Shown one piece after another: positions 22,264 through 53,144 of a stretch of DNA of 64,000 nt. The DNA lies in contig JAJFFH010000049.1 of assembly GCA_021776735.1 (NCBI GenBank), forward strand, positions 5,523 through 69,522, given 5' to 3'. The notes below the pieces were generated by a model. The model had not been told where the DNA came from, searched no databases, and saw nothing but the letters and a program-made list of their open reading frames with translations. The translations under genes were made by a program, and so were the position numbers. The stretch's first letter is position 1, and each line of letters starts with the position of its first letter. This stretch comes from Planctomycetota bacterium. GTDB lineage: Bacteria > Planctomycetota > PLA2.

Positions 22264-22264
22264 T

Positions 22265-35525: not shown

Positions 35526-35561
35526 GGGCGGCGGCGGGGGATTTCCGTGTTCTCAAGTGCC

Positions 35562-36734
35562 ATGCGGAATCTCACCATTCTCCTCCTGCTCGCCGGCCTG
35601 GCGCTGGCCGAGGTCTCGATCACCGCTACCGAACTCAAGCGCAAGGACAAGCGCGCCGTCTCGGTCCGCGCGGCGTTCCGTGTCAAGGGACACGCGCATC
35701 GCCGGCTCGACGTCTATTTCCAGGTGCGGGGCCCGGACGCCAAGGCGCTCGTTGGGGCGGACAAGAAGCCTCTGCTGCAGAAATGGGGCGACGTGCTCGT
35801 CCCTGACTCGGGGCATGCCGTGTCGTGGTCGCAATGCCGACTCGATATTCCGCTCGCCTGGCTGGAAGCCGCGACGAACCTGCCCAAGGGCGTGTCACTG
35901 CTGAAGATCGTGTGCGACATCTGGGATCCGCTTCAGAAGAAATACCTGGCAGCGGGCCACGCCGTCGCCGCGTCCCTGTGGGTCAAGGTGGGCGCCGACG
36001 GCAAGATCGCGACCTACGAGTGCTTCTCGGTGCAGCCGACACCGCTGGTCCCGACGAAGTGGGGCGACAAAAAGGAGGCCGTGGTCTGCCGATTCGGCAT
36101 CCAGCATCTCAAGTTGAAGCCGAAGACGGGTGCCTATCGTTCGGTGGGCGAAAAGCACAACGTCTACGACATCCTTCACCTTCACCGCAACGTCGGCACT
36201 TCGCACGAGCAGGGCGAACTCGAGGATCTCTCCCGCGGCCACTTCTTCGTGCCGATCACGACGAAAGAGCAGGCCCGTGAACTCGCGCTACTGGCGCACT
36301 CCGGCGCGCTGGTCATCCCGACCCGCGAAGCGTACGACACCTGCCAGAAGTACCTGCGCGACAAAGGCTGGCAGAGCGCCATCAAGTCGAAGACGCCCCC
36401 GCCGACCTACGGCGTGAGAGTCCACAAGATTCCCGGCGCGGGCTGGCGCGTCTACGTGCTGCTTCAGGAACTCCACGGTTACAACCGCAAGCGCCAGGGC
36501 GTTGTCTGGTGGATCGACTATCACGTCGACCCGCAGGGCCGCATCGGCGAGACCCGTCGCGAAATCATCAACACCGGTGCGGACGTGTTCACCGGTGGCA
36601 TTGCCCAAGCCAAGCAGTGGCCGCGTGTACCCACATGGTTCAAGACCACGGACAAGGTCGTGAACATTCCGAGCCGCGGCAACGAGTCTCCGTGCCTCAA
36701 GGTCGCCAAGTGGCCCGAGGGCATGCGCGACTGA
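35562..36734 (+). CDS. Secreted hypothetical protein
   Basis: Signal peptide MRNLTILLLLAGLALAEV. 391 aa, unbiased composition. Confidence 0.75.
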   Translation: MRNLTILLLLAGLALAEVSITATELKRKDKRAVSVRAAFRVKGHAHRRLDVYFQVRGPDAKALVGADKKPLLQKWGDVLVPDSGHAVSWSQCRLDIPLAWLEAATNLPKGVSLLKIVCDIWDPLQKKYLAAGHAVAASLWVKVGADGKIATYECFSVQPTPLVPTKWGDKKEAVVCRFGIQHLKLKPKTGAYRSVGEKHNVYDILHLHRNVGTSHEQGELEDLSRGHFFVPITTKEQARELALLAHSGALVIPTREAYDTCQKYLRDKGWQSAIKSKTPPPTYGVRVHKIPGAGWRVYVLLQELHGYNRKRQGVVWWIDYHVDPQGRIGETRREIINTGADVFTGGIAQAKQWPRVPTWFKTTDKVVNIPSRGNESPCLKVAKWPEGMRD

Positions 36735-36812: not shown

Positions 36813-36983
36813 ATGCGAGCCGTTATCGACGCATACAAGAAGGACGTGGATCGCACGCTCCTGCGCGAGAACCTGAAGCTGACGCCGGAACAGCGGCTTG
36901 AAAAACTCATGGAGCTTCAGCGTTTTGCCGAAGAACTCCGCCGCGCGGGCCGCCGGCTCCGCCAAGAACGCCAAGTACAGTGA
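36813..36983 (+). CDS. Small protein, possible antitoxin-like partner of downstream nucleotidyltransferase
   Basis: MRAVIDAYKKDVDRTLLRENLKLTPEQRLEKLMELQRFAEELRRAG. Overlaps the next gene by 4 nt. A dispersed-motif copy lies 30 nt upstream. Confidence 0.4.
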   Translation: MRAVIDAYKKDVDRTLLRENLKLTPEQRLEKLMELQRFAEELRRAGRRLRQERQVQ

Positions 36984-37462
36984 CCGAATACCGCACGCTG
37001 CTGGAGATCCTCCATCGCGGTGGGGTCGAGTTCATCCTCGTCGGCGGCGTCGCCGCAACGCTGCACGGGTCGGCTCGCCTGACGCAAGACGTGGATGTCG
37101 TCTATGCCCGGTCGCCGGACAACATCGCCAGGATTGTGCAGGCACTGTCACCCTACCGCGCGTATCTGCGCGGTGCGCCGGCGGGGCTGCCGTTTGTCTT
37201 GGATGAGGCCACGATCCGGGCCGGTCTCAACTTCACGCTGACGACGACGCTCGGAGATCTGGACTTGTTCGGCGAGATCGCCGGGGGTGGCGCGTACGAG
37301 GCGCTCCTGCCGCAGACCGTGGAGATCGACGTGTTCGGTTTCAAGGTGCGTTGTATCGACCTCGTGACCTTGATCAAGGTCAAGCGCGCCGCGGGCCGGC
37401 CCAAGGATCTCGAGGCCCTCGCCGAACTCGAGGCGCTGCGAGACGAGTCCGAGTTGGAATAG
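36980..37462 (+). CDS. Nucleotidyltransferase-fold protein (possible TA-system toxin-like NTase)
   Basis: LVGGVAATLHGSARLTQDVDVVYARSPDNIARIVQAL is a minimal NTase GS...D.D motif. Confidence 0.55.
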   Translation: MTEYRTLLEILHRGGVEFILVGGVAATLHGSARLTQDVDVVYARSPDNIARIVQALSPYRAYLRGAPAGLPFVLDEATIRAGLNFTLTTTLGDLDLFGEIAGGGAYEALLPQTVEIDVFGFKVRCIDLVTLIKVKRAAGRPKDLEALAELEALRDESELE

Positions 37463-40557: not shown

Positions 40558-42969
40558 TTGCCGGAAGTCGCATTCCATGATGGGGGCGTGAGGGCGTGGG
40601 CTGGACTACTTCTGGTTGTGCTCGCCGCGTCGCTTGCCAGGACGCTGCCGGCGTGGGACCACGTTTTCGTCGGTGAGCGTGGCATCCGGCTCCTCGGGTC
40701 GGACGCGTACTATCACCTGCGCCACGCCGGACACATGCGGACCGACGGTGCCCTGCGGCGCGACGACGTCTGGACGCACTATCCGACCGGCCAGCGTGCC
40801 ACGACCCCCGGACTCTTTGCCGTGGCCGTCGCCGCGCTACCCAACGCGGCCCTCCCCTTTGTTCCCCCCGCGCTGGGGGCCCTCGCGTTGCTGGCTCTTT
40901 TTGTCTTGTTGCGCCGCCTCGCCGGATCGGGAGCCGCGCTGCTTGGCGTGGCCTGCCTCGCTCTTTACCCGGGGCAGTTTCTCTCGCGGTCGCTGCTCGG
41001 TTTTTTGGATCATCACGCCGCGGAGGTTCTGCTCTCCCTGCTCTCGGTGCTCGGATTCTTGCGTTGCCTCGATCGCGCAGAGTCCGACGCGCCGCCGAAG
41101 TGGTGGCGCCCCGCTTTCCTCGAAGCGCTACCCATGGCGGTCTTTTTGTTCACCTGGTCGGGAGCGCCCGTCCACCTGCTGCTCCTGGCCCTGAGTGTCG
41201 CGGTCCTCGCCATCGTGCGGCTGGCGATCCACGGCGACTCCGGATGGCTGCCCGAGGCGTGCGCACGCTTTGGTTTCGGGCTCGTCCCCCTCGTGGCGAT
41301 TCCGGCCTGGATCGCTCCCTGGCTCGTGATGCGGCCCGACCTGTTCGCCGCCGTGCTCGCCGGGTGTGCCGCGTTCGCGTGCGCCGCGGCACCCGTGCTA
41401 TGGGCCGTCCGCCGTTACGGCCGTCCCCGCCTTGCCGCCGCGCTGTTGATGATTGCGATGGCGGCGGTCCTTGTGGCCGGCGCCAACACCAGCGCCGGGG
41501 CGCTGCTCTTGAGGACCCGGACGCGGCTCGTCTCCGAGCACCTGACCATCACGCCCGCTTCGGTTTTTGTGGACTACGGCACCATGCTCGTGCTCGCCGT
41601 CGGGGGACTTGCGGCTGCTGGAGTGTGCGTGCGCCGGGACCGCGGGCGACGCGTGTTCGGCACGACGTACGCCCTGTTGGTCGTCGCGCTGTGGTGGAAG
41701 ACGCGTGATTTTGCGTACATGGCCGGACCGTTCCTCGCGCTCCTGGCCGGGTTCGCCTGGTTGCCGACCCTGCGGCTCCTGCAGCGCCCGCGGAGGGCAA
41801 CCGTCGCGGGCGTCGTTACGCTTGCGTTGCTCGCCGGACCGATCTGGCCCTTGGGCCTGTCGCCGCGCCCGTGGCCGTCGCGGTCCTACGTGGATCGGAT
41901 CGTGGTCTGCACGGATGCCTGGGCCGAGGCTGTTTCCTGGCTGCGCACCAAGACGCCACCGCCTACGATCGATGCCGACAAGCCCGTCGCGCCGTTTGGG
42001 GACTTTGCGTATCCGACGGGAACCTACGGCGTGTGGTCGGCCTGGGACTATGCGAATCTCGTCAACGCGTTCGGCCGCCGGCCCGTAGTCTGGAGTCAGG
42101 GGGCGGCGCGCCATCCGGTGCAATGGATGTTGGAGCGCGACGAGAACGAAGCCCTCTCGCTGCTTCAGCAGTCGTGCCGGGGGCCGGAGCGCGTTCGCTA
42201 CGTCATGCTCGACGCGAACACCATGGGCGACAACTATCTCGCGCATCTGACGGCCGCCGGCCATGACATCGCGGCGCTGGGTCGCGGCCTCGTCGATCGG
42301 CCCGTCGGTCAGGCGACGTTCGGCGAGCGCCTGGACAACACGGTGGCAGCTCGCCTGTACTTTCGGGACGGCGATGGACTGCGGCGCTTTCGTCTGGTCT
42401 ATGCCACGACCCAGAGGACGTTCGTGGGCTACGTCGCGCAGACCCGTGGTGCGGGGGCGGTGATTCGCCGCTGCGCGATCCCGGCGGACGGTTTCGACAC
42501 GCGGATGCGACTCGAGATGATCGCCCAACGCGGCGGCGTGACCGAGGTGAAAGATGTCGGCTACGTCTACGGTGGCGTGGTGGAGCAGACCATCAAGGTG
42601 TTTGAGTGCGTCGAGGGCGCACGGGTGCAGGGCCGGACGCGCGCGCGTGCGGTCGTCACGGCCGGCCTCGACTTGATCGACGCGGCGAACAGCCGACGAC
42701 ACTACACGCAAGAGACCCGTGCCGGCGCCGACGGCCGATTCTCGATGCGCATTCCGTACGCTACCGACGCGCGCGCGGGGAGCGTTCGGGCGCGCGGCAA
42801 GCTGGCTCTCGTGGCGCGCGTCTCCGAGCGCAGCGTGATCGCGCGATCGGCGGTCCGGATCACCGAGCAACAGGTGCAGAGCGGCGGCATGGTCGAGGTC
42901 GATCTGCTGCCCACTCAAGCGCCCCCGACGCCCCCGACCCCGATCCCGCCGCCGAAAGGAGACGGGTAG
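40558..42969 (+). CDS. STT3/PglB/AglB-like oligosaccharyltransferase (multi-TM N-domain + periplasmic C-domain, divergent WWDYG motif)
   Basis: About 13 predicted TM helices. First loop SDAYYHLRHAGHMRTDG resembles the AglB/STT3 D-x-x-YH-R loop. C-domain YGVWSAWDYANLVNAFG aligns with the WWDYG block. Confidence 0.55.
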   Translation: MPEVAFHDGGVRAWAGLLLVVLAASLARTLPAWDHVFVGERGIRLLGSDAYYHLRHAGHMRTDGALRRDDVWTHYPTGQRATTPGLFAVAVAALPNAALPFVPPALGALALLALFVLLRRLAGSGAALLGVACLALYPGQFLSRSLLGFLDHHAAEVLLSLLSVLGFLRCLDRAESDAPPKWWRPAFLEALPMAVFLFTWSGAPVHLLLLALSVAVLAIVRLAIHGDSGWLPEACARFGFGLVPLVAIPAWIAPWLVMRPDLFAAVLAGCAAFACAAAPVLWAVRRYGRPRLAAALLMIAMAAVLVAGANTSAGALLLRTRTRLVSEHLTITPASVFVDYGTMLVLAVGGLAAAGVCVRRDRGRRVFGTTYALLVVALWWKTRDFAYMAGPFLALLAGFAWLPTLRLLQRPRRATVAGVVTLALLAGPIWPLGLSPRPWPSRSYVDRIVVCTDAWAEAVSWLRTKTPPPTIDADKPVAPFGDFAYPTGTYGVWSAWDYANLVNAFGRRPVVWSQGAARHPVQWMLERDENEALSLLQQSCRGPERVRYVMLDANTMGDNYLAHLTAAGHDIAALGRGLVDRPVGQATFGERLDNTVAARLYFRDGDGLRRFRLVYATTQRTFVGYVAQTRGAGAVIRRCAIPADGFDTRMRLEMIAQRGGVTEVKDVGYVYGGVVEQTIKVFECVEGARVQGRTRARAVVTAGLDLIDAANSRRHYTQETRAGADGRFSMRIPYATDARAGSVRARGKLALVARVSERSVIARSAVRITEQQVQSGGMVEVDLLPTQAPPTPPTPIPPPKGDG

Positions 42970-42970
42970 C

Positions 42971-44275
42971 GTGACTGCGCGACGTGCACTCCTCACGCGA
43001 CTGTTGCCGATCGCGGATCTGGCGGTGCTCGGGGCTGCGTTCGCTTTGGCGTACCGTCTCCGGTTCGGATCGTTCCCGGGCCCCGGAGACTTGCGGCACA
43101 CGGTGTCGCACCTGCTCTTGGGCCTGGCGCTTCTCGGCGCGTGGCTTCCGGGGTTGTTCCTGTTCGACCTGTACGACCCGGCCCGCTTTCGCGCGCGCGG
43201 CCGCCTCGCCGGCCAGGTCGTGCAGGCCGCGATACTCGTGGCGCTCGTGGCAGCGGCGGTGCTCTTTGGCACCAAGGCCACGCTGGCGAGCCGCGCGGTC
43301 TTTGGAATGACGCTGGTGATGGCGGCGGTGGGTGTGTGGCTGGTGCGCCTCGCCGCCTTCCGCTGGCTGCACGCAGGAACGCGCGAGCAGGCCATCTTGA
43401 TCGTCGGGGAGGGCGCCGATGCCGAGCGAATGGCCCAAGAGATCCCGGGCGCACGCCGGACGACGAGTGCCGCGCTTCGCGAGGTCCTGGACACCGAAGT
43501 CATCGATCGCGTCATCGTTGCGACCGCGTGGGACGACATCGCACCGTGTGTCGAAGTGTGCCTGGAGGTCGGCGCCGACGTCTCCATCGCGGCGCCGCTT
43601 CCCGGCCCGATCCTCGCCCGCGCCGTACCCGACCGCGTTTTCGGAACACCGGTCCTGCACCTGCACGGCTCGCCGCAATACCGCGCGGCGATGGTCGGCA
43701 AGCGCGCGTTCGACATCGTCGCCGCCTGCGTGCTGCTGCCGTTCGCGTTCCCCGTGTTCGCTGTCGCCGCCCTCGCCGTCCGTCTCTCGTCGCCCGGCCC
43801 GGTCCTGTTCGTGCAGGAGCGCGTCGGCCTCGCGGGCCGGCGGTTCAAGCTCTACAAGCTGCGCACGATGCGAACCGGCGCGGCGGCGGCTCCCGGCAAG
43901 CTCGGAAAGCTCGGAAAGCTCGGCGAGAAGGATCCGGACGACCCGCGCGTCACCCGCGTCGGCCGCTTCCTCCGCCGTTCGTCGATCGACGAGTTGCCGC
44001 AGCTCCTCAACGTGTTGCGCGGCGACATGAGCCTCGTCGGCCCCCGCCCCCCCCTGCCCGAAGAGGTCGCGCGTTACGACCGATGGCAGCGCCGCCGCCT
44101 CTCGATGCGCCCGGGCCTCACCGGACTGTGGCAGGTCTCCGGCCGCTCCGAACTCGGCTTTGACGAGTGCCTGCGGCTCGATCTCAAGTACATCGACAAC
44201 TGGAGCCCGTGGCTCGACGTCAAGATTCTCGTGCGCACGGTGCCTGCCGTTTTGAGTGGACGCGGCGCGCGATGA
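42971..44275 (+). CDS. Undecaprenyl-phosphate sugar phosphotransferase (WbaP/PglC-type initiating transferase)
   Basis: [20 protein letters not shown]...FKLYKLRTM...[28 protein letters not shown] is the bacterial sugar-transferase signature. Confidence 0.9.
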
Positions 44276-45093
44276 ACGACGTGCGGCGCATCGGACCCGG
44301 AAGGGGCAGCGTGATTGCATCGCTGCGTGAACTTTGGGGGGGGCGGGGGCTGCTGCGCGCGATCGCGGGTCGCGAGTTTCGGGTGCGCTACACGCAATCG
44401 ATCCTGGGCGTCGCCTGGGCGCTCGCACACCCGCTCGTCTTGATGGGGGTGTTCACCGTCGTGTTCGGCAAGATCGTCCACGTCGGCAGCGAGGGGCAGC
44501 CCTACCCGCTGTTTTCATACGCCGGCCTGTTGCCGTGGACGTTCCTCGCGACCGGTACGACCCTGGCGATGCGCAGCCTCGTCGCGCACGTCGATCTCGT
44601 CACGAAGGTGTACTTTCCGCGCGAGTTGTTGCCGCTGGCGAGCCTCGCGGCGTCATTGGTCGACTTCCTGATCGCCCTCGGCGTGTTCCTGCTCGTGTTC
44701 CTCGCGTACGGACGCGTGCCCGGTGCGAGCTGGCTTTGGCTCGCTCCGCTGATCATGGTGCAGGCGGTACTGGCCGTCGGCATCGCGCTGTTCACGGCGG
44801 CGCTCAACGTGCGGTTCCGCGACGTCAAGCACGTCATGCCGCTGATGCTTCAGGCGTGGCTGTACATGAGTCCGGTGATCTACCCGATGGCGTCCGTGCC
44901 CGACCGCCTGCGCGGCGTCTTCGCCCTGAATCCGATGGCCGGGCTCGTCGATGGCTACCGCGCCGTGCTGCTCCACGGCCATGCGCCGGACGCCGCGCTG
45001 CTCTTGACCTCCGCGGCGGTCTCGTTGCTGACGCTCATCCTGGGCTGGGCGTACTTTCACCGCGTGGAGGCGTACTTCGCCGATGTCATCTGA
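44272..45093 (+). CDS. ABC-2 type polysaccharide export permease (Wzm/KpsM-like)
   Basis: 6 TM. ABC-2 family blocks. ATGA overlap with the upstream gene. Confidence 0.85.
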   Translation: MNDVRRIGPGRGSVIASLRELWGGRGLLRAIAGREFRVRYTQSILGVAWALAHPLVLMGVFTVVFGKIVHVGSEGQPYPLFSYAGLLPWTFLATGTTLAMRSLVAHVDLVTKVYFPRELLPLASLAASLVDFLIALGVFLLVFLAYGRVPGASWLWLAPLIMVQAVLAVGIALFTAALNVRFRDVKHVMPLMLQAWLYMSPVIYPMASVPDRLRGVFALNPMAGLVDGYRAVLLHGHAPDAALLLTSAAVSLLTLILGWAYFHRVEAYFADVI

Positions 45094-45850
45094 AGCGCTA
45101 GGCCAGGACGAGGCGATCCGGTTCGAGGGGGTGTGCAAGCGCTATCGGCTTGGCCGCGGCGGCGCGTGGGCGGGCGACCTGCGCGACGAGGCGGGGGGAC
45201 TTCTAGGCCGCCTCTTGCGGCGCAATCCGGCACCCCCGACCGTCGATGCGCTGGCCGGCGTGTCGTTTTCCGTACGGTGCGGCGAGAACGTCGCGCTGGT
45301 CGGCGCGAACGGTGCGGGCAAGTCCACGGCCCTGAAGCTCGTCGCACGCATCACCGTGCCGACGAGCGGTACCGTCTGGGTGCGCGGTCGCGTCGCGTCG
45401 CTGATTCAGATCGGCGCCGGGTTTCACCGGGAGCTGACCGGCCGCGAGAACGTGTTCCTGTACGGCGCAATCCTGGGGCTCACGCGCGGCGCGATCCGCG
45501 ACCGCATCGACGCCATCGTGGAGTTCGCCGGGCTCGAACGGTTCATGGACACGCCGGTCAAGCGCTACTCGCGCGGGATGTTTTTGCGGCTCGGCTTCAG
45601 TGTCGCCGTGCACGTCGATGCGGACGTGCTCTTGATCGACGAAGTGCTGGCCGCGGGCGACCGCGAATTCCGCGAGCGCTGCTTCGACCGGATGCGCACG
45701 CTCGTGCAGAGCGACAAGACACTCCTGTTTGTCTCCCACCAGCGCGAACTCGTCGAAAAGACCTGCGACCGCGCGCTGCTCCTTGCAGACGGCCGGGTTA
45801 CCGCGGACGGTTCCGTCGCCGACATCTGGCGCACCTACGCCGCCTCATGA
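45083..45850 (+). CDS. ABC transporter ATP-binding protein (Wzt/KpsT-like)
   Basis: Walker A LVGANGAGKST. Signature and Walker B LLIDEVLAAGD. Confidence 0.9.
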   Translation: MSSEALGQDEAIRFEGVCKRYRLGRGGAWAGDLRDEAGGLLGRLLRRNPAPPTVDALAGVSFSVRCGENVALVGANGAGKSTALKLVARITVPTSGTVWVRGRVASLIQIGAGFHRELTGRENVFLYGAILGLTRGAIRDRIDAIVEFAGLERFMDTPVKRYSRGMFLRLGFSVAVHVDADVLLIDEVLAAGDREFRERCFDRMRTLVQSDKTLLFVSHQRELVEKTCDRALLLADGRVTADGSVADIWRTYAAS

Positions 45851-46914
45851 GCGCGCGGCGCAGGATTCTCTATGTGATCCCGTCGTTCGAGGCGGGGGGG
45901 GCGGAAGCCCAGGTCGTCGAGCACCTCCGTCGTCTACCGCGCGACCGCTTCTCGCTGGAGCTCGCGCTGTGCCGCCGCACGGGCCGCCACTTGGCGAACG
46001 TGCCGGATGACGTCGCGATCCATGGTCTGGGAGGGGGGCGGGGGCCGTGGCACTTGCCGTTTCGCGTGCGCCGGCTGCGGCGCCTGATGCGCGAGACGCG
46101 TCCCGACATCGTCGTGAGCCACCTTTGGTACGCCGACCTCCTGAGCCTGCTGGCCGGCGGTCTCGCGCGTCGCGTCTGCGTGCTGCACGCCGATCACGCT
46201 GCCGAGCTGTCGTCCCTGCGGCGCCGCCAGCGTCTCGGACTGCGCTTGACCGAGCGGTTGTACCGGCGCGCGGACGTCTTGGTCGGTCCGCCGTGGATCA
46301 TGTCGCGCTACGGCGGTGGCGCCACTCTCGGACTGCAAAACGGCATCGACCCCCGCAATCTGACCGCGCGTGCCCGTGCCGCTCCGCCGCCGGAGTGGCC
46401 CGGGCCGGGTCTGCGGCTGATGGCGATGGGACGACTGCATCCCGTCAAGGGCTTTGACGTGTTACTGGACGCGCTGGTGCTCGCACGCCAGCGCGGGTTG
46501 ACCGCGTCGCTGCTTGTCGCGGGCGAGGGACAGGAACGGACGGCGATGTCTGTGCGAGCGAAACGGCTCGGCGGCGTAGCCTTGCCGGGCTACTTGACCA
46601 ACCCCTATCCCGCTCTGGCGCATGCCGACGTATTCGTGCTCTCGTCGCGATCCGAATGCATGGCGACCGTCGTAAGCGAAGCGCTCGCGCTCGGAACCCC
46701 GGTCCTTGCCACACCGTGCGCGGCCCGCCATCTTGACGGCGCCGGTGTGGTCGTGCCGGCCGAAGATTCCGCGGCGCTCGCACAGGCGCTGCTGGACTTG
46801 GCCGCGTCGCCGGAGCAGCGCGCGGCGTTGGCCGAACGCGGGCGCGCCCGGGTGGAGCAGTTCGGTTGGGACCACGTCCTGCCGCAACTCGTGGAACTCT
46901 ACGAGTCGCTGTAG
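45847..46914 (+). CDS. GT4-family glycosyltransferase
   Basis: N-terminal ILYVIPSFEAGGAE. C-terminal GT4 EX7E region (SSRSECMATVVSEALALGTPVLAT). Confidence 0.85.
   Translation: MSARRRILYVIPSFEAGGAEAQVVEHLRRLPRDRFSLELALCRRTGRHLANVPDDVAIHGLGGGRGPWHLPFRVRRLRRLMRETRPDIVVSHLWYADLLSLLAGGLARRVCVLHADHAAELSSLRRRQRLGLRLTERLYRRADVLVGPPWIMSRYGGGATLGLQNGIDPRNLTARARAAPPPEWPGPGLRLMAMGRLHPVKGFDVLLDALVLARQRGLTASLLVAGEGQERTAMSVRAKRLGGVALPGYLTNPYPALAHADVFVLSSRSECMATVVSEALALGTPVLATPCAARHLDGAGVVVPAEDSAALAQALLDLAASPEQRAALAERGRARVEQFGWDHVLPQLVELYESL
46535..46552 (-). repeat. Dispersed motif copy inside the GT4 coding sequence (encodes E-R-T-A-M-S)
   Basis: AACGGACGGCGATGTCT. Confidence 0.65.
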
Positions 46915-48095
46915 CCGGCACGCGCGCCCGCGAGGACCATCAAGGTCACGAGCACCGACGCAAGGTTCAGCCCCGAGCCGAGGCAGTAGATCGGGATGAT
47001 CCACAGGGCGAGGAACATGGCCCGGTCGTTGGAGACACCGGCGCCGGAGAGCCAGACGGCGCGCAGGGTCGCTGCGGCGACAAGCATGAACAGGAGCGCG
47101 CCGATCACGCCGAGTTCGGCGAGAAGCCGGGGCGCGAACTGGTCGAGGCTGCGGATCCGCTGGTGGAACGCGAACCGTCGCGGCTCCCAGGGATCACGCT
47201 CATACAGCGGACTGTCGGTGCGCAGCGCGATGACCCCGCCGAACCGGCCCGGGCCCGCGCCCACGGCGCGATGGTCGCGCCAAACCGCCAGGGCGCGCGC
47301 GCGGGCATAGGCACGAAACGAGGGCTTGATCTGCGCCCCCGCCCCCCCCTTTTGCGGTTCTTGTTGCTGTTCTTGCAACGTGAAGCTGAACGTCGCGGCG
47401 AGAAAGGTCGCGGAGACGAGGACCGGTATCCACATCCAGCGCCGCCGGCACAACAAGAAAGCACCGAGCACTGTCGCAGCGGCGTGAACCATACGCGAAC
47501 CGGAGCAAAGGGCGGCGCCGTAGAGCAGCGCGATGCCGGCGTGCGGACGTGTCGTGCGCGCCGTCTCCATGAGAAAAAACGCGATAACATAGAGTCCCAT
47601 CTCGTTGGGATGGGACATGAGGCCGGAGACGCGGTACACACCGAAACGGCGCATGCCCGGGGCGCCGGCGACGAGACGGACGACTTCCTCGCCCAGTGTG
47701 CAGGCGGCGGCGAGCATCGCGACGAGGCGCAGGACGCCATACGCGCGGTGAAACCAGACCCGGTCGCCGCAGAGCACCGCGGCCATCCAGAAAAACAAGA
47801 ACGCCTTGAGGTAGTCGAATGTGCCGAGTGCCGTGATCCAAAGCGGGACTTCGTTCGCGAGACCCGACACGAGGCAGGCGCTGCCGAGTGCGGCGACCGC
47901 GACGGCAAACGCTCGCTCGCCCGCGAAGGCGGTCCGGCGCCGCCGAAGGATGGCCGCGAGGGGCAGCGCCGCAACGAGCAGGATTTCTTCCGCCCACGGA
48001 AGGCCGATGCGTCGTTGAAACGGCAGAAAGACGAGCAAGACGAGAAGAGCCGCGCGCGCAACTGGAAAGGCGTATCGGGCGCCGGCATTCAACAA
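46899..48095 (-). CDS. O-antigen ligase/polymerase-like (Wzy/WaaL family) membrane protein
   Basis: Multi-TM. HPNEMGLYVIAFFLME-like loop. TTG start assumed at the stop of the upstream gene; the 5' 120 codons of the ORF are junk. Confidence 0.65.
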   Translation of the reverse strand: MLNAGARYAFPVARAALLVLLVFLPFQRRIGLPWAEEILLVAALPLAAILRRRRTAFAGERAFAVAVAALGSACLVSGLANEVPLWITALGTFDYLKAFLFFWMAAVLCGDRVWFHRAYGVLRLVAMLAAACTLGEEVVRLVAGAPGMRRFGVYRVSGLMSHPNEMGLYVIAFFLMETARTTRPHAGIALLYGAALCSGSRMVHAAATVLGAFLLCRRRWMWIPVLVSATFLAATFSFTLQEQQQEPQKGGAGAQIKPSFRAYARARALAVWRDHRAVGAGPGRFGGVIALRTDSPLYERDPWEPRRFAFHQRIRSLDQFAPRLLAELGVIGALLFMLVAAATLRAVWLSGAGVSNDRAMFLALWIIPIYCLGSGLNLASVLVTLMVLAGARAGYSDS

Positions 48096-49246
48096 CGGGC
48101 TGCCTCGAGGATCGCGACGAGCTGTTTCGTGAAGCGCGCCGGATCGCATTCGCCTGCGATGAAGGCGCGCCCTCGCGCACCCAGTTCGCGGGCTCGATCT
48201 GCGCCGAGCGACTGGAGTGCCTGGGCGAGCGCGTTGGCGTCGCCCGCCGGGAACAGGAGCCCGCGCTCGTCCGTCCCGATGAGTTCGGGTAGGCCGCCGA
48301 GGTTGCCGGCGACGACCGGGAGGCCCATGGCGAACGCCTCCAGCACCGAGTTCGGGCAGTTTTCGAACCCGATCGAAGGCACGACTTCCGCGCGCCAGTG
48401 GACCCGTTCGCCGGCAAGCGCTTCCGGCCCGAGCCGTCCCAGAAGCGTGACGTTGGACGGCCAATCAAGACGGAGCGGACCGTCGCCTGCAATTCGAAAG
48501 GAGAGTTCGGGGGCGCGGCTGGCGGCATCGCGCAGTACATGAACGCCCTTTTCCTCGGACAGCCGGCCGGCGAAACCGAAGACCGCCGCTTCCCCCGGAG
48601 TGCCCGGCGCGACCAGGGGCACGGGATTGCGGAGCAGGCGAACAGGATGAGCAAAGCCCATCGAGGCGACCTTGTCGATCAGGAATCGGCTGGGCGCGAG
48701 AAACGTCTTCACCGTGCCAAGACGGCGCCGCTCGCGCCGCGCCGACCACGCGAGCACAAGGCCGCGGGCACGCGAGCCGCCGCACGCGTGCAAAAACGCG
48801 TTCCGAAACCGTCCGTCCGCGCAGGCCTCGCACAGCGAGCCGTTGCGCAGCAGGGTGTGCGCGGGACAGACCACGCGCATGTCGTGCAGGAACAGGACCA
48901 CGGGAATACGGCGTGCCGCAAGTTCGTCCAGCAGGCCAGGGAGACCGAGCTGGTGGTACGCGTTGTGGATCAACGCGACGTCCGGGCGCGCCGCGTCCAG
49001 CAGCCGGCGCAGGGGACGCCGCACGCCATAGCCGAGCGCGCGGGTCGCCGCGCGGAGCGACGGACGGTCGTGACCTACCGGCGTCAAAAAAAACGGGTCC
49101 CAACGCGACGGCTCGTTTCGCGGATCGTGCATCGAGAACGGGATGACCTCGTGGTCCTTGGCCGAGAGCAGGGCCGCCATGCGCAGCATCGACGTCTCGG
49201 AGCCGCCGCGCGGGTAGTAGAACTTGTTGACGAGGAGAACGCGCAT
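48089..49246 (-). CDS. GT4-family glycosyltransferase
   Basis: Start MRVLLVNKFYYPRGGSE. C-terminal ENCPNSVLEAFAMGLPVVA. Confidence 0.85.
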   Translation of the reverse strand: MRVLLVNKFYYPRGGSETSMLRMAALLSAKDHEVIPFSMHDPRNEPSRWDPFFLTPVGHDRPSLRAATRALGYGVRRPLRRLLDAARPDVALIHNAYHQLGLPGLLDELAARRIPVVLFLHDMRVVCPAHTLLRNGSLCEACADGRFRNAFLHACGGSRARGLVLAWSARRERRRLGTVKTFLAPSRFLIDKVASMGFAHPVRLLRNPVPLVAPGTPGEAAVFGFAGRLSEEKGVHVLRDAASRAPELSFRIAGDGPLRLDWPSNVTLLGRLGPEALAGERVHWRAEVVPSIGFENCPNSVLEAFAMGLPVVAGNLGGLPELIGTDERGLLFPAGDANALAQALQSLGADRARELGARGRAFIAGECDPARFTKQLVAILEAARC

Positions 49247-49256
49247 GGTCCTGGTC

Positions 49257-50330
49257 TCACGTCCCCGGTGCGGCGTAGATCGCCTCGAGTCGATCCACGA
49301 TGCGTTCCCAGTCGTGTTCTCGGTGCGCGTACGTGCACGCGGCCGCGCCGAGTGCGTCGCGCTCGGCGTGGGAAAGCGCCGCCATCTCGCGGAGGGCCGC
49401 GACGCGTTCGTCATGTGTTCCGGCCGGACGCAGCAGACCGCGACCATCGGCGAACAGTTCACGGTGGCCCGAGATATCGGATGCGAGGCACGCCCGGCCG
49501 TGGGCCATCGCCTCGAGGCAGGCGATGGGCAGGCCTTCGATCGCGGAGAGATTCACAAACGAGTACGCGTTCGCCAGCAGCTCGTCTTTGAGCACGCCCG
49601 TGACCGTACCCGGGAAGGTGCAGTTCGCGGCGGCGCAGCCCGGCGGGGCCCGTCCGCCCCCACCCCCCCCTGCCACGACCAATCGGAGTCCCGTCCCTGC
49701 GTCGGCAAACGCATCAATCAGCGCGGGCACGCGTTTGGCCGGGGACCACCGTCCCAAGAACAGCATGTAGTCGCCGCCATCCAGCCCGTAGCGTTTGCGG
49801 ATCAGGTTCGGCGGATGCGGTGCGGCCGGCTCGACGCCGTTGGGGAGGTACTCGATGCCGTGTCGCGAGGCGAGACTGCGCGAAACGGCGAGAACGGCGT
49901 GGCTGAAACGAAGGGCGCTGCGTTCGCCGGCGCGCAGGGCACCGCGCGCGACGAAGCTCCACTTCTCGCGTTCGTAGTCCGAGGCGTGGATCGTCGTGAC
50001 GACGCGGCGTCCCGCGAGCCGCGGAAGCCCGCAAAACAGCGCAGGGCCGATCGCGTGGTAGTGCACGACATCGAAGCGGCGCGACATCGCCTCCAGCGAG
50101 CAGCGCAGCGAATGCACGCCCGCTTCGGCGTGCTTGCCGACGGGTGCATGGCGGACCAGGAGGCGTACGCCGCGGTCCGTCTTTGCGCCGCGTGCTGCGT
50201 AGGGGGCGCGCACGAACGCCGCCACGTCATGGCCGCGGTCCGCGAGACGGGTGGCGATCGACTCGACGTGCGCTTCGACTCCGCCGCGCGCCGCAGCCAG
50301 CGCGCGCAGTCCCAAGAACGCGATTCGCAT
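49257..50330 (-). CDS. GT4-family glycosyltransferase
   Basis: MRIAFLGLRALAAARGGVEAHVESIA...NLSAIEGLPIACLEAMAHGRACLAS. Confidence 0.85.
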   Translation of the reverse strand: MRIAFLGLRALAAARGGVEAHVESIATRLADRGHDVAAFVRAPYAARGAKTDRGVRLLVRHAPVGKHAEAGVHSLRCSLEAMSRRFDVVHYHAIGPALFCGLPRLAGRRVVTTIHASDYEREKWSFVARGALRAGERSALRFSHAVLAVSRSLASRHGIEYLPNGVEPAAPHPPNLIRKRYGLDGGDYMLFLGRWSPAKRVPALIDAFADAGTGLRLVVAGGGGGGRAPPGCAAANCTFPGTVTGVLKDELLANAYSFVNLSAIEGLPIACLEAMAHGRACLASDISGHRELFADGRGLLRPAGTHDERVAALREMAALSHAERDALGAAACTYAHREHDWERIVDRLEAIYAAPGT

Positions 50331-50336
50331 GGCCCG

Positions 50337-51353
50337 CTATCTGACGTGCGCGCGCGCCTTTTCGGCCAGCGTACGCAACGCGATGCGGCCCGCGCGATGG
50401 CGAATCTGGGTCTTGGCCGTGCACACCATCCAGCAGGCGTGGCAGGCGCCGGCCTCCTTGCGCGCTGCGCTCGCGTCGGGCCCGTGCCAGATGTCGTCGA
50501 AGTTGTGCTCGCGCAGGCTGCCCATGCGCAGCGAACGGACGTGGCAGGCGTGTACGGTTGCATGCGAGTCGAGGTAGAAAAACCCCTCGCCCGCGTCGCA
50601 GGGGAGCGGTCGCGTGCCGCTGGCGAGGTATTCCACGAGACGGCTCTCGAACCAGCCGCGGATCCACGCCTTGGGGCGCGCGCGCCGGAACTCCCGGCGG
50701 ATGATCGGGTTCAGGGCGTCGCGCAGCCGGCCGATGTCGGTCGGGCGAAGCTGCGACTTCCCGGGACCGAAGTAGATCGGCGAATCGGTCGCGACCGTTG
50801 TGCTGAATACGAGTCCGTGTTCGCGCGTGAACTCGTACAGCGGACGCAGGGCGTGCAGGTTTTGCTCCAGGATCGTGACGCCGATGCCGAGGTCGCGAAC
50901 GCCCAGCGAGCGGGCGAGATCGAGTGTGGCGCGCGCGCGCTCGAAGCCGCCGGGCACGCCGCGAATGGCGTCGTGCTCCTCGCCGATGGCGTCCAGCGAC
51001 ACGCGCAGGCCGATGTCGGGCGCCGTCTTGAGAATCGGCGGCAGGAGCCGCGCGATCTTGTCCGTCATGAAGCCGTGCGACGAAATGACAAGCCGCGCGC
51101 GCGGGCAGGTCGAGCGCAGGACGGCGATGATCTCGGGCAGGTCGTCGCGCAAAAACGGTTCGCCGCCGGAGACATTGATGTCGCGGAGCGAATCGGGCAG
51201 GGTTGCGTACTCGCCGGGGGCCATCTCGCCCTCGACGGGCTCCTTCCAGATGTCGCACATGACGCAACGCGCGTTGCAGTTCAGCGTGACCGCGATGACC
51301 GCCGTGCGCGGTCCGCCCTTGACCTTCACGAATCGATCGTACGGCAGCCCCAA
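50337..51353 (-). CDS. Radical SAM enzyme with C-terminal Cys cluster (SPASM/twitch-like)
   Basis: CNARCVMCDIW matches CxxxCxxC. GGEPFL. C-terminal CHACWMVC. Confidence 0.85.
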   Translation of the reverse strand: MGLPYDRFVKVKGGPRTAVIAVTLNCNARCVMCDIWKEPVEGEMAPGEYATLPDSLRDINVSGGEPFLRDDLPEIIAVLRSTCPRARLVISSHGFMTDKIARLLPPILKTAPDIGLRVSLDAIGEEHDAIRGVPGGFERARATLDLARSLGVRDLGIGVTILEQNLHALRPLYEFTREHGLVFSTTVATDSPIYFGPGKSQLRPTDIGRLRDALNPIIRREFRRARPKAWIRGWFESRLVEYLASGTRPLPCDAGEGFFYLDSHATVHACHVRSLRMGSLREHNFDDIWHGPDASAARKEAGACHACWMVCTAKTQIRHRAGRIALRTLAEKARAHVR

Positions 51354-51371
51354 CGGCCGGGCAAGCGCGTC

Positions 51372-53144
51372 TCAGACATCGAAGTCCTGGAGCCGGGCAT
51401 GGCGGGGGAAGGGTCGCGTCGGCAGGTGGCGCCGGTAGTGCGACGGACGCGCCTGCCAGGTATGTTTCTTCGGGTCTCTGCGGACGATCGCGGTGCCGAA
51501 CCGGTCCGCGGAGAAGATCGGAATCCCCGCGCGGATGCAGTCGTCGAAAAACATCGCGTCCTCGGCGGTGGGGGCTCGCCGCCACGTCACATGTTCGCTC
51601 ACCCCGGGTCGATAGGCCATGTTCGGACCTCCGCAGCCCCCGTGAACGTATCTGTATTCGCTGTCGAGGTTGATCAGGATCATCCGGCCGGTCTGTTCAA
51701 ACAGCACGGGTCGACAGGCCTTGACAATCACGCCCGCGGGGCTCGCGGCGGCGTCAAGAACGAAGTCCTCGACATAGTGGGGGCCGTACCAGTCGTCGTC
51801 ATCGATGCGGATGACGAGATGGCCGCGCGCGTGATTCGAGGCAATCTGCAGGCTCTCGCCCTTCGGCATGCGCTGGGGGGTGTGGAAGACCGTGGTCGGT
51901 ATCGACAGCTCGGCGAGACGCCGGTCCACGTCGGCGCGGTCGAAGCGGTCGCCGTGCAGCATCAGCAGGAACTCGATCCGCGGGTACGTCTGGGCGGCCA
52001 CGAGCTCGAGGATGCGCGGCAAAAACGTCGGCCGATTGGTGCAGAGCAGGAGCGACGCGAGCGGAGGCGCATCGTCAAAGGGCAGGTCCATTGCACGGGC
52101 AATCACAGCGAGGCGTCGCGCGAAACACGCGTCGCGCCAGACACGCCGCAGCCGGGCCTTGCGACACCACAGCCGGCCTTCCCGCTCGTCCGCCCACGCC
52201 GGTGCCGCCGGTGTCGCGAGCGGCCGCCCGAGGATCGAGCCGACGCGCGCGCACTCGGACTCGTTGAGGTCCTGCGTACGCGCGACCTTTTCGAGGAGCC
52301 GCCAATCGCGCGGCAACGGATCGCCGTCATGTTTCCAGGACGCCGGCGACCCCGGACCGGCGTCCCAATGGCCGATCGGGTTTTGCAGAAGCGGTTGCAC
52401 CGCCGCCGCGAGTACGGCCACTTCGCGGCCCAGCGTCTCGCGCAGGTGAGCGGCGACATCCTCGTCCGCGGCGAAACACGCGTCCGCGGCGCGGAGCGTG
52501 TCCGTCCATTCCGGGTCGGGTACGCCATCGATGGCCCAGCAGACCAGTTTCCGATGGGGGGGAAGGGGGCCCGGGGGCGGGGGGGACCGGCTCTCCACGG
52601 CCAGCAGCAACGTGGCGGCCTCGCGCGGGAGTCCCTGAGCGCTCGCCATCGCAAGAAACCAGTCGGGACCGGCGCAGGCGATTGCAGGCGCGGCCGAGTG
52701 AACCGGTTGCGACGGAAGGGCGGCGGCGGGCGCGGGCAACGCTGCGCCGTACAACGGGTTGGACTTGGATCTGCGAAACATGCGCCACGGCGCACGCAGC
52801 AACCCGACGAGATGTTCGCCGCGCCGATACGCGGGACTGCGCCGGATCGCGTCCATTTCGTCCCATGTGCGCCGCAGCTCGACGAGCATCGGCGACTCCG
52901 CGTCCACGGAATCGAGGCTAAACGGGACACGATCGAACAGGATCGGTCGCCAGGGCGCCCGACCGCCGCGCAAGAGCCGCATAACGTCAAGAGACAGCCG
53001 CAAGAGACGCCACGGCGCCCCTTGCCACCGCAAGACCGCTTCGCCCAACCGAAACCGAATCGTGCGCTTGAGCCGATCGCGCTCCGCACGAACGAGACCG
53101 ATCTGCGCCTCCAGCATTGCAGACGAAATCCGCCAACCCAGCAC
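51372..53144 (-). CDS. Two-domain glycosyltransferase (unknown N-domain + GT2 C-domain with DDDD)
   Basis: LLLCTNRPTFLPRILELVAAQTYPRIEFLLMLHGD...IRIDDDDWYGPHY is the GT2 signature. Poly-Pro linker SPPPPGPLPP. Confidence 0.8.
   Translation of the reverse strand: MLGWRISSAMLEAQIGLVRAERDRLKRTIRFRLGEAVLRWQGAPWRLLRLSLDVMRLLRGGRAPWRPILFDRVPFSLDSVDAESPMLVELRRTWDEMDAIRRSPAYRRGEHLVGLLRAPWRMFRRSKSNPLYGAALPAPAAALPSQPVHSAAPAIACAGPDWFLAMASAQGLPREAATLLLAVESRSPPPPGPLPPHRKLVCWAIDGVPDPEWTDTLRAADACFAADEDVAAHLRETLGREVAVLAAAVQPLLQNPIGHWDAGPGSPASWKHDGDPLPRDWRLLEKVARTQDLNESECARVGSILGRPLATPAAPAWADEREGRLWCRKARLRRVWRDACFARRLAVIARAMDLPFDDAPPLASLLLCTNRPTFLPRILELVAAQTYPRIEFLLMLHGDRFDRADVDRRLAELSIPTTVFHTPQRMPKGESLQIASNHARGHLVIRIDDDDWYGPHYVEDFVLDAAASPAGVIVKACRPVLFEQTGRMILINLDSEYRYVHGGCGGPNMAYRPGVSEHVTWRRAPTAEDAMFFDDCIRAGIPIFSADRFGTAIVRRDPKKHTWQARPSHYRRHLPTRPFPRHARLQDFDV

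Follow-up and report, generated by a model that had tools for sequence, protein, structure and literature searches.

Positions 40558–53144 of the window (the whole 64,000-nucleotide stretch of planctomycetotal DNA that was analysed) hold two convergent operons (Table 1). The first runs from an STT3-like oligosaccharyltransferase (OTase) through a WbaP-type polyprenyl-phosphate hexose-1-phosphate transferase (PGT), Wzm and Wzt to a GT4 enzyme, and the second from a GT2 fusion through a radical SAM/SPASM enzyme and two further GT4 enzymes to a Wzy_C-like protein. The gene calls are backed by GC3 frame bias and profile matches, and every gene listed in the first-pass annotation was recovered in its place, several true starts lying 3′ of the longest-ORF starts. 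A single nucleotide separates the OTase stop from the PGT start, whose AAGGAG ribosome-binding site lies within the 3′ end of the OTase gene, and the junctions PGT/wzm, wzm/wzt and wzt/GT4a each overlap by 4 or 11 nt. The flanking host genes (RND efflux pump, HlyD, ECF sigma factor, DeaD/DbpA) are bacterial on both sides.

Table 1. Genes and OTase motifs of the locus, in window coordinates.
Feature	Position	Strand	Evidence or remark
Acidic predicted lipoprotein, 963 aa	37549..40440	-	LGGC lipobox; divergent to OTase
STT3/AglB-type (GT66) OTase homologue, 803 aa	40558..42969	+	Pfam STT3 and AglB_L1, AfAglB-L match, AF2 model
EL1 motif SDAYYHLR, catalytic Asp49	40699..40722	+	opposite GNDPWYYYR of AfAglB-L
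Second acidic motif GFLDHHAAE (D151, H153, E156)	40999..41025	+	opposite GFNDHHIWE of AfAglB-L
EL5 motif LVSE (TIXE/SVSE equivalent), Glu327	41527..41538	+	opposite T-I-A-E of AfAglB-L (profile alignment)
Divergent WWDYG equivalent S-A-W-D-Y-A	42037..42054	+	
RRPVVWSQG, replacing the canonical R(I/P)PxANPFQ segment	42076..42102	+	clade-specific
DK-motif equivalent DANTMGDNYLAH	42211..42246	+	opposite D-I-E-M-E-T-G-K-Y-Y-A-M of AfAglB-L
WbaP/EPS-type PGT, initiating enzyme	42971..44275	+	Bac_transf E 2e-66, CoA_binding_3
Wzm-like ABC-2 permease	44272..45093	+	ABC2_membrane E 1.9e-17; ATG overlaps PGT stop
Wzt/TagH-like ABC ATPase, 255 aa	45083..45850	+	ABC_tran
GT4 (a)	45847..46914	+	Glyco_trans_1_4, Glycos_transf_1, Glyco_transf_4; ATG overlaps wzt stop
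Wzy_C-family membrane protein, 416 aa	46899..48149	-	weak Wzy_C match (29.2 bits; cutoff 31.7)
GT4 (b)	48089..49246	-	Pfam GT4 domains
GT4 (c)	49257..50330	-	Pfam GT4 domains
Radical SAM/SPASM enzyme	50337..51329	-	Radical_SAM and SPASM
Fusion, ~350-aa N-terminal part then GT2	51372..53144	-	Glycos_transf_2 E 1.4e-10, residues 368-474

The 803-residue protein is an STT3/AglB (GT66) enzyme and neither an ArnT nor a PMT; a protein identical to it is recorded from an NCBI assembly. An N-terminal multi-helix membrane domain precedes a C-terminal periplasmic domain, and the protein matches the Pfam models STT3 (PF02516; 67 bits, cutoff 24.5) and AglB_L1 (PF18079; 53 bits, cutoff 23.6). Its best NCBIfam model, TIGR04154 (oligosaccharyl transferase, archaeosortase A system-associated), is aligned end to end (3–831 of 831; E 3.2e-78), yet the score of 264 bits lies below the cutoff of 450 and the host is bacterial; no archaeosortase or PGF-CTERM context was noticed among the genes scanned. 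Searched with HMMER against the sequences of solved structures, the single sequence finds Archaeoglobus fulgidus AglB-L (AfAglB-L; 3waj, 5gmy, 7e9s), an archaeal single-subunit N-OST of family GT66, at E 2e-16, and the family profile finds it at E 6.8e-95 (profile 5–818 against chain 5–867), which by sequence places the match far above chance. In the HMMER alignment, the OTase segment 'YGVWSAWDYANLV' stands opposite 'YGVISWWDYGHWI' of AfAglB-L. An AlphaFold (AF2) model of the OTase (pLDDT 89, pTM 0.90) was matched by Foldseek to AfAglB-L (7e9s) at E 8e-31 and TM 0.75, the likeness extending over the full length and including the peripheral C-terminal domains; human STT3A/B follow at ~1e-15 and PglB at E 1.6e-10 with a TM of 0.47. 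No PglB chain appeared among the matches to solved structures in either the single-sequence or the family-profile HMMER search. Profile and structure comparison thus bears out the first-pass call of an STT3-type oligosaccharyltransferase, while the accompanying label 'PglB-like' has to give way to archaeal AglB-L-like.

The enzyme falls in a clade that counts at least 135 sequences, drawn from Myxococcota, Latescibacterota, Verrucomicrobiota, Bacteroidetes and further MAGs, and a literature search found no characterised member of it. A neighbour-joining tree contains one split that parts 135 sequences without the WW of WWDYG from 33 sequences with it, with no exceptions. The clade is closer to archaeal and eukaryotic sequences than to PglB and is related to euryarchaeal AglB-L.

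Conservation was counted in 135 members of this bacterial clade and in 33 canonical relatives. The catalytic residues Asp49, Asp151, His153 and Glu327 are kept at 98–100% in the clade: Asp49 in 135/135 members (and in 33/33 canonical relatives), Asp151 and His153 each in 135/135, and Glu327 in 132/135; Glu156 is present in 134/135. The EL5 loop that carries Glu327 is modelled with lower confidence (pLDDT 71–79), which fits a flexible EL5. AfAglB-L shares the EL1 Asp, the GxxDHHxxE motif and the Glu of the EL5 (T/L)(I/V)xE motif, but is only ~18% identical to the OTase and differs from it at three further motifs, where WWDYG has become SAWDYA, the DK Lys has become Asn, and ANPFQ has become VWSQG.

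These differences extend across the clade. The first Trp of WWDYG, found in all 33 canonical relatives, is present in none of the 135 clade members; at the remaining positions Trp496 is kept in 134/135, Asp497 in 88/135 and Gly499 in 131/135, the OTase of the window having Ala at 499. In place of ANPFQ, where canonical relatives have Asn513 (33/33), Pro514 (26/33), Phe515 (26/33) and Gln516 (32/33), the clade has WS(R/Q)xP, with Ser513 in 111/135 and Arg, Gln or Gly at 514. The DK-motif Lys (position 559) occurs in 26/33 canonical relatives versus 15/135 clade members and is Asn559 in the window protein. Both motifs that had been picked out from the sequence alone are real (SDAYYHLR at residues 48–55, SAWDYA at residues 494–499), and the divergence of WWDYG, with the DK Lys mostly lost and the catalytic residues invariant, proves to be a property of the clade. 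WWDYG and the DK/MI motif form the Ser/Thr-binding pocket (PMC8342417). Because this +2 pocket (first Trp of WWDYG and Lys of DK) is missing clade-wide, the acceptor rule is probably not canonical N-X-S/T, and the earlier suggestion of non-canonical acceptor recognition is strengthened by the combination of these changes with intact catalytic residues. The retention of Trp496 and Asp497 in the window protein could allow partial Ser/Thr recognition.

OTase genes of the clade adjoin glycosyltransferase genes (GT4, GT28 and GT2) and several types of flippase. Locus L067 carries a GT2, a PglK/MsbA-type ABC, two GT4 enzymes, a WecA/Alg7-type PNPT and a GT28; L066 an acetyltransferase and a MurJ-like flippase; L025 a GT4, an oxidoreductase, Wzx and another GT4; L002 a GT4, a radical SAM enzyme, a GT4 and a Wzy_C protein; and L005 and L008 both GT4 and GT28, to which L008 adds an ABC. 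In 13 further loci, the most frequent neighbour families are GT4, ABC and GT2. Orthologues of GT4 (b) and GT4 (c) adjoin the OTase gene in L002 (34% and 33% identity, respectively) and L025 (40% and 39%). The setting resembles the Campylobacter pgl locus, in which a bacterial single-subunit OST gene also lies amid genes for an initiating transferase, GT4 enzymes and a flippase, a likeness heightened by the PglK/MsbA-type ABC of L067 and L008. PglB itself carries WWDYG and an MI motif and requires D/E-X-N-X-S/T (PMC4894442, PMC4287180).

In place of the dolichol-phosphate machinery that serves AfAglB-L, the bacterial locus has Und-P-type initiation by the WbaP-like PGT (TIGR03025, 368.7 bits, above the 295.55 cutoff) and Wzm/Wzt. 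The Wzm/Wzt pair and the Wzy_C protein recall the ABC-dependent O-antigen pathway with its WaaL ligase. That pathway, however, is initiated by a WecA-type PNPT rather than a WbaP-type PGT, the Wzt-like ATPase of the window lacks the C-terminal carbohydrate-binding domain (its top NCBIfam models, TagH and galactan Wzt, both score below cutoff), and the first gene of the operon encodes an STT3-type transferase. The Wzy_C protein has no NCBIfam match and no PDB sequence match; its L002 orthologue (34% identity) reaches 44.4 bits for Wzy_C, above the cutoff, and the domain, sub-threshold in the window protein, is shared with PglL/PilO O-OTases and WaaL ligases. Its role may be that of a polymerase, a PglL-like O-OTase or a WaaL-like ligase. 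The Wzy_C Pfam family includes the WaaL ligases that serve ABC-dependent O-antigen pathways, so the co-occurrence of an ABC exporter and a Wzy_C protein is in itself not odd; the first-pass annotation was right that both stand beside an STT3-like enzyme. The radical SAM/SPASM enzyme, which presumably modifies a sugar or the glycan, belongs to a family with 583 clusters at E<1e-20 (L002 orthologue 36% identical). The N-terminal ~350 residues of the GT2 fusion gave no match in searches that included Pfam and NCBIfam.

We lean towards a reading in which the locus builds a glycan on undecaprenyl phosphate and exports it, and the GT66 OTase transfers it en bloc to extracytoplasmic proteins by an acceptor rule other than N-X-S/T; the donor lipid, acceptor class, linkage and role of each GT are what we infer from the gene content. 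The PGT would make Und-PP-hexose at the cytoplasmic face, the three GT4 enzymes and the GT2 fusion would lengthen the glycan, the radical SAM/SPASM enzyme would modify it, and Wzm/Wzt would bring the lipid-linked product to the periplasmic face. There the AglB-like OTase would act as a single subunit on periplasmic or surface proteins, with Asp49, Asp151-His153 and Glu327 as the putative metal- and amide-activating residues and probably an Asn side chain as acceptor. The Wzy_C protein probably shares the lipid-linked glycan, for ligation to lipid A-core or O-linking to proteins. The 963-residue lipoprotein is a speculative candidate acceptor: it has no Pfam or NCBIfam match, shows no sequon excess (8 N-X-S/T sites against ~8.7 expected), and is not conserved beside related OTase genes, where no conserved acceptor gene was found.

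The best-surviving alternative, which we nonetheless consider unlikely, is a canonical N-glycosylation enzyme that still reads N-X-S/T through Trp496 and Asp497, as in AglB or PglB. The near-universal Trp496, the Asp497 of the window enzyme, a catalytic site identical to that of canonical OSTs and a fold near AfAglB-L are all in its favour; set against these, the first Trp is absent throughout the clade, Asp497 is missing in 47/135 and the DK Lys in 120/135, and ANPFQ has been swapped for a different conserved motif. WWDYG is carried by all AglBs studied, and the Asp and Lys of DxxK are catalytically important (PMC4287180). That the motif changes are coordinated and clade-wide points to an altered pocket and not to a substitution that is merely tolerated.

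Next in rank, and likewise improbable, is a locus of the usual O-antigen or exopolysaccharide kind, whose STT3-like protein uses a non-protein acceptor (lipid, peptidoglycan or glycan) or is accessory, with the Wzy_C protein as a WaaL-type ligase. Besides Wzm/Wzt and the Wzy_C protein, which suit the ABC-dependent pathway, and the lost peptide Ser/Thr pocket, it draws on the radical SAM/GT4/PGT part, a general polysaccharide module also found in polysaccharide loci that have no STT3 gene; the glycan may therefore be primarily O-antigen or EPS. Nevertheless, Asp49 and Glu327, equivalents of the residues by which known OSTs bind the acceptor carboxamide, are essentially invariant, the entire AglB-L periplasmic architecture is retained, and the OTase genes of relatives lie in loci of a pgl-like or Alg-like kind (PNPT, GT28, PglK-type ABC) that have no O-antigen hallmarks. 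No GT66 enzyme is known to us to use an acceptor other than protein.

A decayed STT3 relic, an archaeal contaminant or a chimeric assembly piece is very improbable. The score below the TIGR04154 cutoff and a nearest relative only 49% identical could be read that way; the conservation of catalytic residues and clade-specific motifs over at least 135 sequences largely refutes it, and an intact ORF with GC and GC3 like its neighbours, bacterial genes on both sides and translational coupling of the OTase gene to a bacterial PGT also speak against it. A PMT/ArnT-type GT-C enzyme is ruled out by the Foldseek ranking, in which ArnT (E 8e-5, TM 0.27) and Pmt4 (E 9e-4), sharing the distant membrane fold common to all GT-C enzymes, fall far behind AfAglB-L, and neither ArnT nor PMT is among the Pfam or PDB sequence matches.

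The reading we favour, transfer to proteins under a non-canonical acceptor rule, concerns a clade of OTases that have kept their catalytic residues but no longer have those by which a protein's target site is normally recognised.

The glycan locus (40558-53144) consists of two convergent operons whose 3' ends overlap at 46899-46914. The window has a GC content of ~67%, so that many spurious frames crowd its raw ORF lists; the genes of the locus were resolved by GC3 frame bias together with profile searches, and their start codons were refined. On re-reading of the sequence, the gene list, order and coordinates of the first-pass annotation proved correct, as did the two motifs it had quoted (SDAYYHLR and SAWDYA) for the oligosaccharyltransferase-like protein (OTase). 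A single nucleotide separates the OTase stop codon from the start of the WbaP-type initiating transferase (PGT), which is preceded by an AAGGAG ribosome-binding site, and the following genes overlap by 4 nt (PGT/wzm and wzt/GT4a) or 11 nt (wzm/wzt), so the plus-strand genes make up one translationally coupled unit. A promoter and terminator scan gave nothing decisive.

Features of the window and of the loci of relatives (L numbers), each in the coordinates of its own sequence
Sequence	Position	Strand	Feature	Remarks
Window	14958-18380	+	Stop-free frame, 1140 codons	ECF sigma-70 regions 2 and 4 at start
Window	22052-24082	+	Aldehyde:ferredoxin oxidoreductase	AFOR_N + AFOR_C, E 2.5e-123
Window	34836-35525	+	DedA/VTT-domain membrane protein	5 kb upstream of glycan locus
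Window	35547-36734		395-aa protein	No Pfam matches
Window	36980-37462	+	Small nucleotidyltransferase, AbiEii/DUF2204 type	Toxin-antitoxin-like; between DedA-like region and glycan locus
Window	37549-40440	-	963-aa acidic predicted lipoprotein	LGGC signal; divergent from OTase gene
Window	40558-42969	+	STT3-like protein (OTase), 803 aa	Pfam STT3, AglB_L1
Window	42971-44275	+	WbaP/EPS-type PGT	TIGR03025 above cutoff
Window	44272-45093	+	Wzm	ABC2_membrane
Window	45083-45850	+	Wzt	ABC_tran
Window	45847-46914	+	GT4 (GT4a)	
Window	46899-48149	-	Wzy_C-family protein	
Window	48089-49246	-	GT4	
Window	49257-50330	-	GT4	
Window	50337-51329	-	Radical SAM/SPASM	
Window	51372-53144	-	N-terminal region of unknown type fused to GT2	
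L001	1-5528		Large flanking protein	
L001	5719-6597		LGT	PF01790
L002	7159-7929		LGT	PF01790
L002	18431-21885		Large flanking protein	
L025	705-4523; 8760-9941		Large flanking proteins	
L065	453-3503		Large flanking protein	
L072	10001-11035		Radical SAM relative	Anthocerotibacter panamensis
L073	10001-10993		Radical SAM relative	

The first gene of the locus encodes an STT3-type enzyme. The Pfam families STT3 (67 bits) and AglB_L1 (53 bits) both match above their gathering thresholds, and the archaeal STT3 model of NCBIfam, TIGR04154 (archaeo_STT3), aligns end to end (E 3e-78) with a score of 264 bits, below the curated cutoff of 450. The top solved structure in a phmmer search was AglB-L of Archaeoglobus fulgidus (AfAglB-L; E 2e-16); a profile of 40 family members aligned to it over positions 5-818 versus 5-867 (E 6.8e-95) and also recovered human STT3A (4e-17) and yeast STT3 (6e-8), with no ArnT, PMT or PglB chain among its solved-structure matches. 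An AlphaFold2 model built from the family alignment (pLDDT 89.2, pTM 0.90) predicts a membrane domain of the GT-C type and, C-terminal to it, a periplasmic/luminal domain, as in solved oligosaccharyltransferases (OSTs), and Foldseek places AfAglB-L first (E 8e-31, TM 0.75/0.70), eukaryotic STT3A/B at ~1e-15 and PglB at 1.6e-10. The enzyme is of the AglB-L type. The suggestion that it is an STT3 rather than a PMT/ArnT protein is thus borne out, the latter identity being rejected with a TM of 0.27 for ArnT (E 8e-5) versus 0.75 for AfAglB-L, an E of 9e-4 for Pmt4 and no PMT/ArnT match in Pfam. The first-pass annotation had named PglB and AglB together as the comparison to make; by profile and structure, only the AglB half held. 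A PglB-type identity is rejected, as no PglB chain occurs among the HMMER matches of the single sequence or the profile, the Foldseek TM is 0.47, and the motifs differ; the PglB subfamily is marked by detectable sequence similarity to PglB together with WWDYG and an MI motif. Very probably the OTase is a GT66 enzyme that is catalytically competent and has a lipid-linked glycan as its substrate.

Alignment of 168 full-length sequences, sorted by the WWDYG position, yielded 33 canonical relatives with (S)WWDYG and 135 lacking its first Trp. The canonical sequences come from archaea, some Dehalococcoidia, one Planctomycetota MAG and one Gammaproteobacteria MAG, and a single split in a neighbor-joining tree of all 168 parts them from the non-WW sequences with no exceptions; the divergent WWDYG reported for the window protein is a property of the whole clade.

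Conservation of motif positions (numbering of the window OTase) in the two groups
Position	Motif or role	Non-WW	Canonical
D49	First acidic motif, EL1, SDAYYHLR; catalytic Asp	135/135	33/33
D151	Second acidic DXD-type metal-binding motif, GFLDHHAAE	135/135	33/33
H153		135/135	33/33
E156		134/135	33/33
E327	EL5 TIXE/SVSE-type motif, here LVSE; catalytic Glu	132/135	33/33
First Trp of WWDYG		0/135	33/33
W496		134/135	33/33
D497		88/135	33/33
G499	Ala in window protein	131/135	33/33
559	DK-motif Lys; Asn in window protein	15/135	26/33

GFLDHHAAE aligns to the DHH of AfAglB-L and LVSE to its TIAE. The pocket that binds the Ser/Thr of the sequon is formed by WWDYG and the DK/MI motif together (PMC8342417); every AglB is described as carrying WWDYG, and in the DxxK motif both Asp and Lys are described as important for catalysis (PMC4287180). 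In the OTase, WWDYG is absent (SAWDYA), and only the positions of Trp496 and Gly499 are conserved at this motif across the clade. The DK/MI motif is incomplete, with Asp552 kept and Asn559 at the Lys position, which was located by profile alignment to D-I-E-M-E-T-G-K-Y-Y-A-M of AfAglB-L. The canonical R-x-P-x-A-N-P-F-Q segment (N in 33/33, Q in 32/33) gives way in the clade to R-P-P-V-W-S-(R/Q)-x-P, with the Ser present in 111/135. As judged from the alignment, the catalytic site of the membrane domain is strictly conserved and the periplasmic acceptor-reading elements are rebuilt in a clade-specific way. With the catalytic residues kept, the first Trp of WWDYG and mostly the DK Lys lost, and ANPFQ replaced by a conserved clade-specific motif, the pattern is a signature of changed specificity and not of decay. 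Recognition of the canonical sequon after all, one of the two main rival readings, with the membrane-domain site shared between the two groups on one side and the rebuilt Ser/Thr pocket on the other, is in our view unlikely.

Word-indexed protein searches with the OTase returned few relatives only. When 1.84 billion cluster representatives were scanned exhaustively with HMMER, 1341 relatives came up at E<1e-3, of which 164 reached E<1e-30; even the closest shares only 49% identity. When one genome per species was scanned, the closest relatives (26-35% identity) were exclusively bacterial MAGs, of Zetaproteobacteria, Latescibacterota, Myxococcota/Myxococcales, Bacteroidetes, Verrucomicrobiota and Selenomonadaceae; Burkholderiales and Vulcanimicrobiota MAGs followed at 24-25%, and archaeal relatives (Halobacteriales, Methanoperedens) lay mostly at 21-25%. 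Two non-canonical paralogues occupy separate sites in one Latescibacterota genome (L003, L004) and in one Burkholderiales MAG (L012, L014). Canonical WWDYG/WWDHG AglB-like genes are found in bacterial MAGs as well, from Dehalococcoidia (L046, L049, L050, L052, L055), Planctomycetota (L026) and Gammaproteobacteria (L038), so that archaeal-type OST homologues of two or more kinds exist in bacteria.

The gene neighborhoods indicate that the OTase gene is consistently embedded in predicted loci for lipid-linked glycan assembly. In L067 (OTase 40% identical) it is accompanied by a GT2, a fused ABC_membrane/ABC_tran protein of the PglK/MsbA type, two GT4s, a Glycos_transf_4 protein (WecA/Alg7-type PNPT), a GT28 (MurG/Alg13-14-like) and an SDR; in L066 by a hexapeptide acetyltransferase and a MurJ-like flippase; and in L025, from Myxococcales, by GT4, a GFO/IDH oxidoreductase, Wzx and GT4, with two GT2 genes upstream. 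L001 contains LGT, polyprenyl synthase, GT4, GT28, OTase, GT4 and GT2, and GT4 and GT28 lie directly downstream in L005 and L008, the latter with a PglK-type ABC protein. The best genome match, L002, reads LGT, B12-dependent radical SAM, OTase, GT4, radical SAM/SPASM, GT4 and Wzy_C, the last four being orthologues (33-36%) of minus-strand genes of the window. Another 13 loci contributed 121 neighboring ORFs, in which the most frequent Pfam families were GT4 (12), ABC_tran (10, including some ABC-F proteins that are not relevant) and GT2 (5). The type of flippase varies (Wzx, MurJ, PglK-like ABC, Wzm/Wzt), as expected for an enzyme that picks up its lipid-linked glycan after flipping, on the outer face of the membrane. 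The PGT, Wzm/Wzt, GT2 fusion and 963-aa neighbor of the window are not conserved beside the relatives' OTase genes.

Two unrelated loci, L001 and L002, carry an LGT gene near the STT3-like gene; together with the predicted lipoprotein beside the window OTase, this may be a sign that lipoproteins are acceptors, or a coincidence. In several loci (L065, L025, L001, L002) the STT3-like gene has large secreted or repeat proteins at its flanks, among them PKD (1016 aa), CBM2 (1272 aa), LRR, transglutaminase-core (3124 aa) and RTX plus S8 protease types. A seemingly conserved 395-aa neighbor without Pfam matches (window, L025, L067) was dismissed as coincidental, the proteins having no mutual similarity.

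The radical SAM/SPASM family is large and well conserved and comprises 583 clusters at E<1e-20, with 43-62% identity among the best 120, and its PDB matches are weak (SkfB, BtrN, ~1e-5). Because the family recurs in polysaccharide loci without STT3, in the order GT4, radical SAM, GT4, PGT in L073 and beside GT2, MBOAT and pyruvyl-transferase genes in the cyanobacterium of L072, we regard the enzyme as putatively acting in glycan biosynthesis, neither a peptide maturase nor OTase-specific. A RiPP maturase whose peptide the OTase would glycosylate was rejected, given these plain polysaccharide loci beside GT4 and PGT genes and no precursor-like context. The N-terminal ~350 residues of the GT2 fusion, two thirds of the protein, begin with a coiled-coil-like segment and had no detectable match in family searches.

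The Wzm/Wzt pair (ABC2_membrane and ABC_tran, overlapping adjacent genes) is a feature of ABC-dependent O-antigen pathways. The Wzy_C-family protein scores 29.2 bits versus a cutoff of 31.7, a sub-threshold match to a profile that does not distinguish WaaL, PglL and Wzy. ABC-dependent pathways need a WaaL ligase, itself a member of the Wzy_C Pfam family, so the pairing of an ABC exporter with a Wzy-like protein, which the first-pass annotation had pointed out, is not odd in itself. A non-protein acceptor within an O-antigen or EPS pathway, the other main rival reading, with this pair and the Wzy_C protein on its side and the STT3-type fold and the pgl- or Alg-like loci of relatives on the other, seems to us quite improbable.

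The predicted gene complement is that of a bacterial host, with AcrB/HlyD efflux proteins, an ECF sigma factor, a DeaD protein that carries a DbpA domain, and a lipoprotein with a lipobox; because of these neighbors and the OTase gene's composition, which is like theirs, contamination or chimerism is unlikely. The aldehyde:ferredoxin oxidoreductase may indicate that the host lives anaerobically or microaerobically. In the 1140-codon frame, the sigma regions are followed by seven CarboxypepD_reg repeats and Ig-like domains, as a fusion or two overlapping genes. DedA-family proteins have been linked to undecaprenyl-phosphate recycling, and the DedA/VTT protein may by analogy serve lipid-carrier turnover. 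The very acidic 963-aa predicted lipoprotein (D+E 14%, Asn 6%) has no Pfam or NCBIfam match; it was rejected as a sequon-rich acceptor, having 8 sites versus ~8.7 expected and lacking homologues near the OTase genes of relatives (no match in any of their loci by tblastn). A PEP-CTERM/exosortase or archaeosortase link was likewise rejected: no such proteins were noticed in Pfam and NCBIfam scans of the window, and matches of some GTs to XrtA-associated NCBIfam models fall far below cutoff.

We propose that the PGT would prime undecaprenyl phosphate (Und-P) with hexose-1-phosphate, that the GT4s and GT2 would extend the glycan and the radical SAM enzyme modify it, and that Wzm/Wzt would export the Und-PP-glycan. 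The AglB-like enzyme would then transfer the glycan en bloc to an amide nitrogen in proteins of the periplasm or the surface through its conserved Asp/Asp-His/Glu site, with acceptor recognition independent of a +2 Ser/Thr; the Wzy_C protein may draw on this donor too, to modify lipid A-core or for O-linkage. Towards this mechanism as a whole, in which the acceptor is a protein and the rule non-canonical, we lean with modest confidence. More doubtful is the wider proposal of a widespread bacterial GT66 clade nearest euryarchaeal AglB-L that has kept its catalytic machinery, rebuilt its acceptor pocket and glycosylates proteins outside N-X-S/T from hexose-first Und-PP glycans; its rule might do without a hydroxy residue at +2, follow another motif or even use another acceptor residue.

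We know of no clade member that has been studied experimentally, and to our knowledge PglB of Campylobacterota and Desulfobacterota is the only source of experimental evidence for OST-dependent N-glycosylation in bacteria (cf. PMC4894442, PMC12229607). STT3 homologues in such bacteria are not new, since NCBI/JGI pipelines already label relatives 'STT3 domain-containing protein [Myxococcota bacterium]' or Stt3 subunit, and a 2016 phylogeny placed a few bacterial homologues among euryarchaeal AglBs (PMC4973528). In the literature searched, we found no description of this non-WW clade, of its size and separation from canonical sequences, of the first Trp, DK Lys and ANPFQ being lost together while the catalytic core stays intact, or of the clade's association with Und-P-type glycan loci in bacteria. 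Glycoengineering would profit from an OST that accepts hexose-initiated Und-PP glycans and follows a looser or altered acceptor rule, because the sequon and reducing-end sugar requirements of PglB are limiting (PMC11164674, PMC4894442). If the proposal is true, OST-type protein glycosylation would reach Myxococcota, Latescibacterota, Verrucomicrobiota, Bacteroidota and other phyla; a second bacterial OST lineage, archaeal in type and numbering at least 135 distinct sequences, would broaden what is known of protein glycosylation in bacteria, and the clade would be a natural experiment in which the sequon-reading pocket of an OST changes while its catalytic core stays fixed.
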